Shown one piece after another: positions 2,890-6,173 of a stretch of 22,620 nucleotides of DNA. The DNA is from a virus. Lineage: Duplodnaviria > Heunggongvirae > Uroviricota > Caudoviricetes. How positions within the stretch are numbered: the stretch's first letter is position 1; each line of letters begins with the position of its first letter. The stretch is from IMG/VR virus record IMGVR_UViG_3300045988_014132, positions 1 through 22,620 of that record, one strand, 5' to 3'. A model generated the notes under the pieces. The model was not told the DNA's origin. It saw nothing but the letters and a program-made list of their open reading frames with translations, and ran no database searches. The position numbers and the translations under genes are program-made.

Positions 2890-3213
2890 ATGAAGATGCC
2901 AGAAAAACATGACCTGTTAGCCGCCATTCTCGCGGCAAAGGAACAAGGCATCGGGGCAATCCTTGCGTTTGCAATGGCGTACCTTCGCGGCAGATATAAT
3001 GGCGGTGCGTTTACAAAAACAGTAATCGACGCAACGATGTGCGCCATTATCGCCTGGTTCATTCGTGACCTTCTCGACTTCGCCGGACTAAGTAGCAATC
3101 TCGCTTATATAACGAGCGTGTTTATCGGCTACATCGGTACTGACTCGATTGGTTCGCTTATCAAACGCTTCGCTGCTAAAAAAGCCGGAGTAGAAGATGG
3201 TGGAAATCAATAA
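2890..3213 (+). CDS. S: Class I holin S (S107 antiholin / S105 holin dual start)
   Basis: 107-aa ORF starting [22 protein letters not shown]; essentially the lambda S protein as recalled; Met1-Lys2-Met3 dual-start motif present. Confidence 0.95.
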
Positions 3214-3673
3214 TCAACGTAAGGCGTTCCTCGATATGCTGGCGTGGTCAGAGGGAACTGATAACGGACGACAGAAAACCAGAAATCATGGTTATGACGT
3301 CATTGTAGGCGGAGAGCTATTCACTGATTACTCCGATCACCCTCGCAAACTTGTCATGCTAAACCCCAAACTCAAATCAACAGCAGCCGGACGTTACCAG
3401 CTTCTTTCCCGTTGGTGGGATGCCTACCGTAAGCAGCTTGGCCTGAAAGATTTCTCTCCGAAAAGCCAGGACGCTGTGGCATTGCAGCAGATTAAAGAGC
3501 GTGGCGCTTTACCGATGATTGATCGCGGTGATATTCGTCAGGCAATCGACCGTTGCAGCAATATCTGGGCTTCACTGCCGGGCGCTGGTTATGGTCAGTT
3601 CGAGCATAAGGCTGACAACCTGATTGCAAAATTCAAAGAAGCTGGCGGAACGGTCAGAGAGATTGAGGTATGA
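3197..3673 (+). CDS. R: Endolysin R (lambda-type lytic transglycosylase)
   Basis: 158-aa [27 protein letters not shown]...; matches lambda R in length and sequence as recalled; start overlaps the 3' end of S. Confidence 0.95.
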
Positions 3674-4137
3674 GCAGAGTAACCGCGATTATCTCCGCTC
3701 TGGTTATCTGCATCATCGTCTGTCTGTCATGGGCTGTTAATCATTACCGTGATAACGCAATCGCCTACAAAGAGCAGCGTGATAAAAAAGTCAGTGAGCT
3801 GAAGCAGGCGACCGCCACCATTACTGACATGCAGCAACGCCAGCGTGCTGCTGATGCACTCGATGCTAAATACACGAAGGAGTTAGCTGATGCGAAAGCT
3901 GAAAATGATGCTCTTCGGCGCAAGCTTGATAATGGTGGCAGGGTGCTCGTCAAAGGAAAATGCCCTGTGCCATCCTCAGCCGAAACCTCCAGCGCCTCCG
4001 GCATGGGCAATGATGCCACCGTCGAACTCTCTCCAGTTGCTGGACGAAACGTTCTCGGTGTCCGGGACGGAATTATCCGCGACCAAACAGCACTGAGAAC
4101 GCTTCAGGAATACATCAGGACGCAATGCCTTCGATGA
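3670..4137 (+). CDS. Rz: Inner-membrane spanin subunit Rz (i-spanin)
   Basis: 155-aa ORF; N-terminus [31 protein letters not shown] is lambda Rz-like with one TM helix; C-terminal half differs from lambda Rz; ATGA overlap with R. Confidence 0.9.
3890..4096 (+). CDS. Rz1: Outer-membrane spanin subunit Rz1 (o-spanin lipoprotein), embedded in the +1 frame of Rz
   Basis: 68-aa ORF wholly inside Rz in another frame; signal peptide with lipobox VAGC ([21 protein letters not shown]) followed by proline-rich [11 protein letters not shown]; classic embedded spanin architecture. Confidence 0.8.
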
Positions 4138-4311
4138 TAGCGATAATTTTACTCATCATCCTTCACATCTGGCTCTGTAGACAGGGTGGTGATCACTTCT
4201 GGAGTGAATCCAGATTAAACATCTCATTGCTGATGCTTGAAGTTGAGCATCTGGCGCGCGGTAAGGGGCTGCGTTGAGATAAGAGCCAGTCATCACAAAC
4301 ACCAGGATTTA

Positions 4312-4337
4312 GCCTCGCATTCGCGGGGCTTTTTATT
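4312..4337 (+). terminator. Intrinsic terminator downstream of the lysis cassette
   Basis: 7-bp stem gcctcgc / gcggggc (one G-U pair) with loop attc, followed by TTTTTATT at 4330-4337. Confidence 0.55.
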
Positions 4338-4355: not shown

Positions 4356-4643
4356 ATGGATGAAGAATATCGTAAAGACCTGCAATTGTGGTTTGGCCTG
4401 ACGCATGCGTCGTTCTGCGTGATGCCGAGAGTATTCATGGAGGCTATGCCACAAGAATGGCAAGAGAAGATGGCGCAGTTGCTTTTTGAGTATGGCGACA
4501 CGATCAAAACGGATGTCTGCGGAGTTCACAGCTGTTTCGTTACTGCCAAAGACGGCAACAACCGCTTTATGAGGATGCCAGAAGATATTCTGAACTATCG
4601 TCATCCCCGGCGTGAGTTCATCGAATCATTTCTGAAGAAGTAG
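4356..4643 (+). CDS. Hypothetical protein (95 aa)
   Basis: ORF MDEEYRKDLQLWFGLTHASFCVMPRVF...; AGGT about 9 nt upstream of the ATG; protein-like composition, unlike the overlapping - strand ORFs; no family recognised. Confidence 0.5.
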   Translation: MDEEYRKDLQLWFGLTHASFCVMPRVFMEAMPQEWQEKMAQLLFEYGDTIKTDVCGVHSCFVTAKDGNNRFMRMPEDILNYRHPRREFIESFLKK

Positions 4644-4891
4644 CCATTACAAAGCCTATCTGCGGGTGGGCTTGATAATGAAACCGGAGCTTATTCTTGG
4701 CAACCAGTTATGGCAGTACCACGAAGCAACCCAAGCCAGAAAGTGGGGAAATAACACTGGCAGCCACTGAAAGATGAACCTCCTGCCTGATGGCAAAAAA
4801 AGATTCTTTGTGGTGGCGGACTGATGGAAAGACATCGGTTATTGCAGAGGCCATTCAATGAGTGGTCTCGACAATGGCTTATACCCTACAC

Positions 4892-4917
4892 GGGATAACT
4901 TAACTGATATCCCTTTT
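4892..4917 (+). terminator. Hairpin plus T-tract upstream of the small-ORF/terminase operon (weak terminator or regulatory hairpin)
   Basis: Perfect inverted repeat gggata (4892-4897) / tatccc (4908-4913) with 10-nt loop, followed by TTTT at 4914-4917. Confidence 0.3.
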
Positions 4918-4938
4918 AACGGATAAACGGAGCCAACA

Positions 4939-5181
4939 ATGGCAGAGATTATTCCCATGACTGAAGAACAGAAATTCCAGTTAGAGATTTACAAGCTGGT
5001 CATGAACCAGAACGCAGCCGCAGAAGAAGCATTTCAATTCATTGGCACTGACGAACTGAAGCTTGAGCTATTCAAAATTCACTTCCAGTCAGGCGGCGCT
5101 AATTCAGATATCACGACCCGCACTATCGAAGCGGTGCGTAAATCGAAGGAAGCGTTAGACCTGTTCACTACCGGAGTGTAA
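4939..5181 (+). CDS. Hypothetical protein (80 aa), predicted helical
   Basis: ORF MAEIIPMTEEQKFQLEIYKLVMNQ...; GGAG 7 nt upstream; first of three tightly packed small genes before the terminase genes; size and position resemble the small ORF carried by P22-like phages between lysis and gene 3. Confidence 0.6.
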   Translation: MAEIIPMTEEQKFQLEIYKLVMNQNAAAEEAFQFIGTDELKLELFKIHFQSGGANSDITTRTIEAVRKSKEALDLFTTGV

Positions 5182-5184
5182 GAG

Positions 5185-5472
5185 ATGACTGAACAAGAAA
5201 TGCCGAGATACCAGTGCCACAAAAAAGTTCGCGCCCTGAAGATTGGCTCTATAGAACATAAGCCAAACCCAGATCAGCCTGGTAAGTCTGGCTCTTCTAG
5301 TTATGGGGCAATTATTCATCCGGATGATAAGAAATACGCAGCATTTGATGTTAGCGCGGAATATATCTGTAAGCACCGACCAATGCCTGGAGGCTATTAC
5401 GTTGTCTATGAGGATGGATATGAATCATATTCTCCTGCTGAGGTATTTGAGTCTGGATATTCAAAATTATAG
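5185..5472 (+). CDS. Hypothetical protein (95 aa) with Cys/His dyads
   Basis: ORF MTEQEMPRYQCHKKVRALKIGS...YICKHRPMPGGYYVVYEDGYESY; starts 4 nt after the previous stop; QCHK and CKH dyads suggest possible metal binding. Confidence 0.6.
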   Translation: MTEQEMPRYQCHKKVRALKIGSIEHKPNPDQPGKSGSSSYGAIIHPDDKKYAAFDVSAEYICKHRPMPGGYYVVYEDGYESYSPAEVFESGYSKL

Positions 5473-5481
5473 GAATCCTCT

Positions 5482-5661
5482 ATGACAATCGTCGTTGATC
5501 TTGGTAAGGAGAAGAAATTCCCAATTACTCAAGAGCTATACGAGCGACTTGAAAGCGTCATCCATGATTACGATGGTGAAATCAGTTTATGCGAGGCGAT
5601 TGGCACACTCGAATTGCTGAAGCAGTCACTGATTGAAGGCGCGAAAGAGTCCTCAGCCTGA
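5482..5661 (+). CDS. Hypothetical small protein (59 aa)
   Basis: Not in the supplied ORF track (below its size cutoff); read directly: ATG 5482 ... TGA 5659-5661, MTIVVDLGKEKKFPITQELYERLESVIHDYDGEISLCEAIGTLELLKQSLIEGAKESSA; AGGAAT upstream; fills the gap between the 95-aa ORF and the terminase gene. Confidence 0.5.
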   Translation: MTIVVDLGKEKKFPITQELYERLESVIHDYDGEISLCEAIGTLELLKQSLIEGAKESSA

Positions 5662-5678
5662 AATAACAACTAAGTGAG

Positions 5679-6173
5679 ATGAATATGGCAGCACCAAAGG
5701 GCAACCGATTTTGGGAGGCCCGCAGTAGTCATGGGAGAAACCCTAAATTCGAATCGCCTGAGGCGCTGTGGGCTGCTTGTTGTGAATACTTCGAGTGGGC
5801 TGATGATAACCCGCTATGGGAGGGTAAGGTATTTTCATATCAGGGAGAAATAATTAAGGCCAATGTCCCTAAGATGCGAGCCATGACTATTTCAGGATTG
5901 TGTACCTTCCTTGATATCACCAGGCAAACATGGGGAACCTTCCGGTCAATGGAAGGTTTTTCTGACGTCACATCACGAGCGGAAGACATCATCTACGACC
6001 AGAAATTCTCTGGCGCAGCCGCTGACCTTCTCAACGCTAACATCATCGCCCGTGATTTGGGCCTCAAAGAGCAGTCGCAAGTTGAAGACGTGACACCTGA
6101 TAAGGGAGATCGCGATAAGCGACGCTCTCGTATCAAGGAGCTATTCAACCGTGGAACTGGACGCGATTCTTGA
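5679..6173 (+). CDS. 3: Terminase small subunit (P22 gp3-like)
   Basis: N-terminus (M)[33 protein letters not shown] matches P22 gp3 as recalled; the true start may be the second ATG at 5685, giving a 162-aa product. Confidence 0.85.

Follow-up and report, generated by a model that had tools for sequence, protein, structure and literature searches.

Phage-encoded sponges of bacterial immune signals comprise a group of small, phage-restricted accessory proteins. The experimentally verified families Tad2 (PF11195), Acb2/Tad1 (PF24729), Acb4 (PF13876), Sequestin (PF21825) and Lockin have folds that are helical or otherwise known, and include a sponge for 3'cADPR (Sequestin) and a CBASS sponge (Acb4). 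The search that uncovered Sequestin asked which uncharacterized Pfam families are found in fusion with Tad2 and Acb4 (10.1101/2025.07.12.664507), and a 2026 paper lists Tad1, Tad2, Acb2, Acb4, Sequestin and Lockin as sponge families together with its own TadIV-1. A second described system that bears on the present locus is the capsid decoration protein Dec of phage L, ST64T, SE1 and epsilon34 (PDB 6e3c), which consists of an N-terminal OB domain (residues 10-89) and a C-terminal three-stranded trimer spike (residues 99-134). Dec contacts the capsid through K30, Y31, Y49, Y71 and E73 (PMC6449081), and the OB domain without the spike (Dec 1-98) is unable to bind P22 virions (PMC11398494).

We examined two small genes in a 22,620-nucleotide stretch of viral DNA (the window; IMG/VR record IMGVR_UViG_3300045988_014132). 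Sequence matches to phages of the P22 type and to prophages of E. coli identify the window as the late part of a Lederbergvirus (P22-like) prophage from E. coli. The 477-bp stretch that holds both genes matches E. coli strain 1190 at 100% identity; RefSeq/PGAP annotates both ORFs there as hypothetical proteins. The stretch is also 98% identical to phage CurroJimenez_Bas106. The original prediction had located the 95-aa and 59-aa ORFs correctly, with a 10-nt offset and a place upstream of terminase; its remark that the shorter gene was missed by the ORF track reflects only a length cut-off, as PGAP already annotates both ORFs. The features of the region are as follows.

3197-3673: lysozyme
3670-4137: Rz
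4311-4330, plus strand: terminator-like GC hairpin and T tract, downstream of Rz
4356-4643: apparent C-terminal remnant of Rha
4939-5181, plus strand: orf80 (DUF2560; Pfam PF10834, E 1.1e-43; P22 ORF80)
5185-5472, plus strand: gene for the 95-aa protein, a predicted OB fold (PHROG 11049), between orf80 and orf59c
5470-5472, plus strand: TAG stop dividing the two in-frame ORFs
5471-5474, plus strand: AGGA, Shine-Dalgarno-like for orf59c, overlapping the TAG and 7 nt 5' of the ATG
5482-5661, plus strand: orf59c (P22 Orf59c / HK620 hkbN; PHROG 3546), 59 aa
5679-6173, plus strand: small terminase of P22 gp3 type (Pfam GP3_package, E 8.6e-31; PGAP start 5685)

The large terminase and then the portal gene lie downstream of the small terminase. 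The 95-aa gene (hereafter the OB gene) starts 3 nt past the orf80 stop, and its own TAG is separated by a 9-nt spacer from the ATG of orf59c, which stands 10 nt past the last base of the stop. No plus-strand promoter-like site was seen ahead of the pair within the late operon, and Rfam and tRNA scans of the window returned no matches. The terminator-like hairpin (arms AGCCTCGC-ATTC-GCGGGGCT, then a T tract) lies upstream of this gene block, so a late transcript must read through it; an annotated terminator occupies the equivalent place in phage epsilon34. Co-expression with the packaging genes, which had been proposed for the pair, is plausible given the late operon and the lack of an intervening plus-strand promoter-like site. 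The companion proposal of an early-injected function is not supported.

Several other features of the window were observed in passing. The similarity of the separate 95-aa ORF at 4356-4643 to Rha-family regulators is confined to their C-terminal part (PHROG 3527, positions 139-230), and in strain 1190 the corresponding site has a Rha gene of full length; on the evidence of these matches, the ORF appears to be a Rha gene that recombination has truncated. The ~550 bp at 2334-2889, between a Q-like antiterminator (1710-2333) and the holin (2890-3213), contain no ORF of at least 60 aa and no tRNA, and presumably hold the late promoter and qut region; relatives have tRNA genes (Bas106) or an Acb4-family (PF13876) gene (others) at this position. 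In P22-type relatives the gene for the Pid regulatory protein is found immediately upstream of orf80 on the other strand (L002 1772-2032, phage P6), and the equivalent region of the window (4644-4938) has only short minus-strand ORFs of 48-59 aa.

Comparison of related phages indicates that the interval between orf80 and the small terminase is a mosaic accessory slot. In P22 it contains orf59c alone, following orf80, while Dewey has orf80, the OB gene and the small terminase in direct succession and Bas106 has Rha, the OB gene and orf59c. SE1 and epsilon34 carry an orf80-like gene, Orf129, dec and the small terminase, with dec directly before gene 3; the slot of phage L likewise holds Orf129 and dec. 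A P22-like Citrobacter phage/prophage combines these arrangements as orf80, the OB gene, an Orf129 homologue and the small terminase. The Orf129-family protein has an HExxH motif (LAHEACHLAFEICHH). Its neighbour is the OB gene in P22-like prophages of the Citrobacter type, and dec in phages L and SE1; such Orf129 or metallopeptidase-like neighbours were located at L010 4300-4671, L008 2112-2501 and L014 4322-4963. A PhageMetallopep (PF18894) gene was also found directly 5' of an OB-family gene in a metagenomic phage, and OB genes may be recurrently associated with a small metallopeptidase-like protein.

The slot is a hot spot of recombination in which many different cargoes are found, and the nearby pid gene of P22-type phages is annotated as targeting host metabolism. 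Both points would suit an explanation in which the two genes are unrelated "moron" passengers that share no function and the 95-aa gene is directed at the host in the lysogen, as an exclusion or fitness factor, and not at lytic growth. The genes are, however, preceded by a terminator-like hairpin and by no plus-strand promoter-like site, the 3-nt distance from orf80 suggests late-operon expression, and the OB family is also common in virulent phages. We regard a lysogen-directed passenger as improbable.

The 95-aa protein (10.7 kDa) has 449 close relatives, and a profile search extends the family to 5,215 clusters at 50% identity (E <= 1e-3), or 3,255 at E <= 1e-10. Searches with the protein found no match or model in Pfam (none at E <= 1), NCBIfam or PADLOC. 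PHROG 11049 matches residues 1-94 (E 7.6e-55) and carries no annotation; its profile is 182 positions long and must have been built partly from two-domain or fused members. Members of the family are found behind the lysis genes in a Morganella prophage of HK97 type, in a nin region, in a replication module, and in regions of Pseudomonas and Klebsiella phages that look early. No curated model covers this very large, phage-restricted family.

Structure prediction (AF2, pLDDT 80) gives an OB barrel, and the model shows the 95-aa protein as a single OB-fold domain with a Pro/Gly/Ser-rich loop of low pLDDT at residues 26-40. Conservation was counted over 144 diverse representatives of the family. 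An invariant block is formed by P7, Y9, V15, A17, I20, G69, G70, Y71, V73, Y75, D77, G78, Y79, S81, S83, P84, F88, E89 and G91. The Tyr/Gly-rich tail (residues 69-92) that had been recognized previously is present. Among close relatives the gene has a pN/pS ratio of 0.8, a value that derives from 12 variable sites only.

The original prediction had emphasized two Cys-His dyads, QCHKK (C11, H12) and ICKHR (C62, H64), and had proposed a small metal-binding fold. Both dyads are present in this protein, and their histidines are kept in most representatives (H12 in 132 and H64 in 133 of the 144), along with the adjacent lysines (K13 in 143, K63 in 128). The dyads are not conserved family-wide, however: position 11 is Cys in 107 representatives and Ser in 37 (26%), and position 62 shows no conservation (R 30, E 16, Q 13, H 11 and others). 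A small zinc-binding protein with Cys/His ligands, in obligate complex with the acidic 59-aa protein would find some encouragement in the conserved histidines, in the adjacency, shared frame and occasional fusion of the two ORFs, and in a CxxC...CxxC loop insertion seen in a few relatives; set against these are the lack of conservation at C62 and the C11/Ser alternation, a predicted OB barrel without zinc-knuckle topology, and the independent assortment of the two genes. This explanation is very improbable, and the metal-binding fold did not survive the comparison of homologues that the original prediction had itself named as a way to refute it. The C11/S11-H12 and K63-H64 motifs could equally belong to an enzyme or to a protein-protein interface.

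Two sequence features of relatives were recorded alongside. In P0083 and P0103 it is the variable loop joining strands 1 and 2 that contains the CxxC...CxxC insertion, which, from its sequence pattern, is probably a zinc ribbon. In the 4,188-aa protein P0210, profile positions 71-94 (the GGYYVVYxDGYxSxSP hairpin) are matched 28 times, so the hairpin motif resembles a unit repeated along a giant protein, perhaps of YD/Rhs type.

Among solved structures Dec of phage L is the only significant relative of the OB domain (Foldseek E 3.8e-4, the sole match at E <= 1e-3), and alignment of the 95-aa family with Dec by hhalign gives a probability of 90% and an E value of ~2e-6 over 84-95 columns. These matches, together with the common genomic slot, provide good support for homology, though remote, between the 95-aa protein and the OB domain with which Dec binds the capsid. 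The two genes share the interval from orf80 to terminase, dec directly upstream of the terminase genes and the OB gene here one gene (orf59c) away, with orf80- and Orf129-family neighbours in common. A decoration or virion-associated function, in which the OB domain would bind a P22-type coat lattice and stabilize the head and Orf59c might serve for oligomerization in place of the spike, is consistent with this homology, with the shared slot, with expression of the OB gene from the late operon, and with the label 'capsid decoration protein' given to relatives in some phage records.

Further comparison argues against such a function. The 95-aa protein ends directly after the OB domain, at residue 95, and lacks the trimer spike without which Dec does not bind virions; the ORF that follows is helical and unrelated to the spike. 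The capsid contacts are not conserved, as K30, Y31, Y49, Y71 and E73 of Dec align by hhalign to E24, H25, D55, D77 and Y79. The OB family also has a set of invariant residues of its own (H12, K13, K19, K63, H64, Y71, Y75, D77, Y79, S81 and S83). Unlike Dec, it is thousands of clusters wide, is found in nin, replication and early regions and in phages of unrelated head types, and includes members fused to sponge domains, which are cytoplasmic. Orf59c occurs in P22, which has no decoration protein, and AF2 modelling of a natural fusion gives no confident packing of the OB domain on Orf59c (pTM 0.53). The sequence comparisons thus do not support membership of the 95-aa protein in the Dec decoration family, and we consider a decoration function rather improbable.

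The 59-aa gene is orf59c of P22 and hkbN of HK620 (PHROG 3546, E 2.2e-41). Its product has the same length as P22 Orf59c/HkbN, is ~90-95% identical over residues 8-59, and has the same place directly 5' of the small terminase. At the DNA level 95.6% identity to P22 begins at window position 5503, that is 21 nt inside the gene, which marks a mosaic junction within orf59c; before the junction the two genes differ, in the start codon as in the first 7 codons. Here the gene starts with ATG preceded by its own AGGA, whereas in P22 it starts with GTG after GGAG and overlaps the orf80 stop. A start codon and Shine-Dalgarno sequence are therefore retained in two different upstream contexts, and the AGGA is kept in all 35 viral loci with the OB gene upstream. 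Across 80 IMG/VR loci the gene is intact in 78, with a pN/pS of 0.185 and variable sites distributed 18/8/29 by codon position, a pattern which indicates a protein-coding gene under purifying selection. Both genes are real, and the 59-aa ORF in particular bears the marks of translation that had been called for.

The Orf59c protein is acidic (pI 4.5) and predicted to be helical, as expected from the first inspection. The AF2 model, of modest confidence, has a basic N-terminal segment (LGKEKKFPIT) that is disordered yet highly conserved, and then two helices, and the family motif LGKEKKFPITQEL...DGEISLCEA is present in the protein of the window (alignment A7). No homologue of known function or structure was found through Pfam, hhalign against Sequestin or the PDB, and a literature search on orf59c/hkbN found nothing relevant. 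Assignment of Orf59c as a divergent Sequestin was rejected (hhalign probability 2%; no PDB relative), and Pfam matches at E 0.09-0.28 were dismissed as noise. We take Orf59c to be a small helical protein in its own right, conserved among P22-like phages.

The orf59c gene is always directly 5' of the small terminase, and both gp3-type and Sf6-type terminases follow it; retention with at least two unrelated types indicates that it is not type-specific. In a related observation, orf59c and the intergenic DNA up to the first small-terminase codons (MNMA..., window 5662-5690) are conserved before at least three terminase types (L021, L075, L082, L096), which places a mosaic junction just inside the terminase gene. 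The constant position of orf59c, and that of the OB gene near terminase here, would suit a nucleic-acid-binding OB protein of DNA metabolism or packaging, such as a terminase accessory or a binder of ssDNA or RNA, with Orf59c as a packaging cofactor. Many structural neighbours of the OB domain bind DNA or RNA (HIN domains, RPA, Pot1, SSB), and one relative adjoins an Enc34-type ssDNA-binding gene and a DNA polymerase. These OB matches are generic, at 4-13% identity; the 95-aa protein is near-neutral (pI 6.4) and not basic; the OB gene is absent from most P22-like phages, which package normally; and orf59c is retained with unrelated small terminases. A role in nucleic-acid binding seems about as improbable as one in decoration.

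The two genes had been described as a coupled pair. They are adjacent, both in frame 1 (starts at 5185 and 5482), and occasionally fused: five database proteins of 158 aa are exact OB-Orf59c fusions in which the TAG is replaced by CAG, GAG or TGG, within otherwise intact loci of the order orf80, fusion, gp3 and gp2 (L179 1756-1826, L181 551-621). The three replacement codons imply at least three independent single-base events. These alleles show that fusion is tolerated, mirroring relatives composed of an OB domain and a small C-terminal domain. The TAG is kept in 35 of 35 viral loci, and no signal supporting programmed read-through of it was found.

Each gene nevertheless occurs without the other. 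The OB gene precedes orf59c in 35 of 80 viral loci and 49 of 159 E. coli genomes, leaving orf59c without an OB gene in the remaining 45 loci and 110 genomes; conversely, phage Dewey, Citrobacter, Morganella and many other phages have the OB gene without orf59c. Co-occurrence of the homologues, which the original prediction had put forward as a check, is not constant, most relatives having orf59c alone, and this independent distribution excludes obligate coupling. The AF2 model of the natural fusion P0003 (158 aa) has no confident contact between the two parts (linker pLDDT <50), which does not count against an interaction of the two. Ancient OB-Orf59c fusions were also considered and rejected, since among 120 OB relatives the Orf59c HMM recovers nothing beyond the five 158-aa fusions, which are near-identical; P0033 gave a marginal match (E 0.05), and its tail is Acb4-like. 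With a one-in-three prior for a shared frame, possible neutral drift in prophages and no confident interface in the model, a functional coupling of the 95-aa protein and Orf59c is no more than possible. The two genes are hot-spot neighbours which can be fused by a single base change, and not an obligate pair.

One alignment artefact deserves mention. MAFFT repeatedly paired the OB segment VVYEDGYxSYSPA (window 5380-5420) with VIHDYDGEISLCEA of Orf59c (5557-5590). The likeness was judged to be chance, a beta hairpin against a helix-loop, and the combined alignment A3, in which the OB motif VVYEDGY was paired with VIHDYDGE of Orf59c, was discarded as resting on this chance resemblance.

The evidence that bears most directly on function comes from longer members of the OB family. 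Domain partners were scanned in 100 members of 125-400 aa, and Pfam domains were found as crAss001_48/PF21825 (five proteins), Phage_gp49_66/PF13876 (three), Tad2-like (three), Acb2_Tad1_hairpin (two), DUF551 (two) and four singletons. Sponge domains (Sequestin, Acb4, Tad2 and Acb2/Tad1) are present in 13 of the 100, and the extensions of 81 have no recognisable domain. A published Lockin fusion (Table S4, 10.1101/2025.07.12.664507) also contains the OB domain, as confirmed by the family HMM (51.7 bits). The fusion partners therefore represent five experimentally verified sponge families, Tad2, Acb2/Tad1, Acb4, Sequestin and Lockin, and in all of the sponge fusions the OB domain is N-terminal and the sponge C-terminal.

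Genomic neighbourhoods provide a similar picture. The search returned 80 viral loci; 47 divergent loci were selected from them, and the scan covered 109 proteins from ~38 of these. OB-Tad2 or OB-Acb4 fusions were present in four of the scanned loci, two more proteins had Acb2/Tad1 domains, and Lar and a DNA methylase were found as neighbours. In locus L017 the OB gene is followed by TGA, 9 nt and an in-frame Acb2-like gene, a layout equivalent to the OB gene, TAG, 9 nt and orf59c of the window.

The 95-aa protein resembles the sponges in being small, phage-restricted and accessory. It differs from them in fold, as a predicted OB barrel, and no similarity to Tad2, Acb2/Tad1, Acb4, Sequestin or Lockin was found by sequence or profile; assignment of the OB family as a divergent Lockin was rejected (hhalign probability 0.7%). 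A literature search for OB-fold sponges found nothing relevant, and the family is absent from the 2026 list. Lacking a Pfam model, it would have been invisible to the query that uncovered Sequestin.

We propose that the 95-aa protein may be a counter-defence module made late with the virion genes, a proposal whose chances we consider about even. The reasoning is that the OB domain is repeatedly fused N-terminally to five verified sponge families, that OB genes adjoin sponge and anti-restriction genes in other phages, and that Sequestin was discovered by the same logic; evidence of this kind, from fusions and neighbours, is circumstantial. The protein would bind, and possibly cleave, a nucleotide-derived immune signal, or would in some other way block a defence that relies on signalling, for example Thoeris, CBASS or Pycsar. 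A candidate site would be formed by the invariant residues H12, K13, K19, K63, H64, Y71, Y75, D77, Y79, S81, S83 and E89. Late expression of the gene would fit the idea, put forward in a published report, that virion-assembly proteins trigger signalling defences (10.1101/2023.05.21.541620).

A bolder form of the counter-defence proposal, which we hold only tentatively and think doubtful as a whole, would make the 95-aa protein a stand-alone member of a new and very large family of phage OB proteins that inhibit nucleotide immune signalling, either as sponges or by degrading the signal, and that escaped notice for want of a Pfam model. Dec would have been derived from this cytoplasmic domain by gaining a tail-fibre-like trimer spike. 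Orf59c would then be a second mini-inhibitor, and the two genes a late two-part anti-defence cassette able to work split or fused. Orf59c has a predicted layout in common with TadIV-1, a flexible basic N-terminus plus two helices, and it occupies the position that Acb2, Sequestin or Tad2 has in relatives of the OB gene.

These results have implications for the annotation of P22-like prophages and for the wider family. The interval between the lysis and terminase genes should be annotated as an accessory or anti-defence hot spot and not as part of the packaging module. The 'novel OB-fold' of the well-studied Dec protein gains many relatives and a plausible origin in its own genomic slot. Seven sponge families are known, each of which revealed which immune signals phages must neutralise, and a domain of more than 5,000 clusters that is fused to five sponge families, yet is unnamed and without a model, is an obvious next candidate. 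This candidate would be directly testable by existing Thoeris, CBASS and Pycsar assays.
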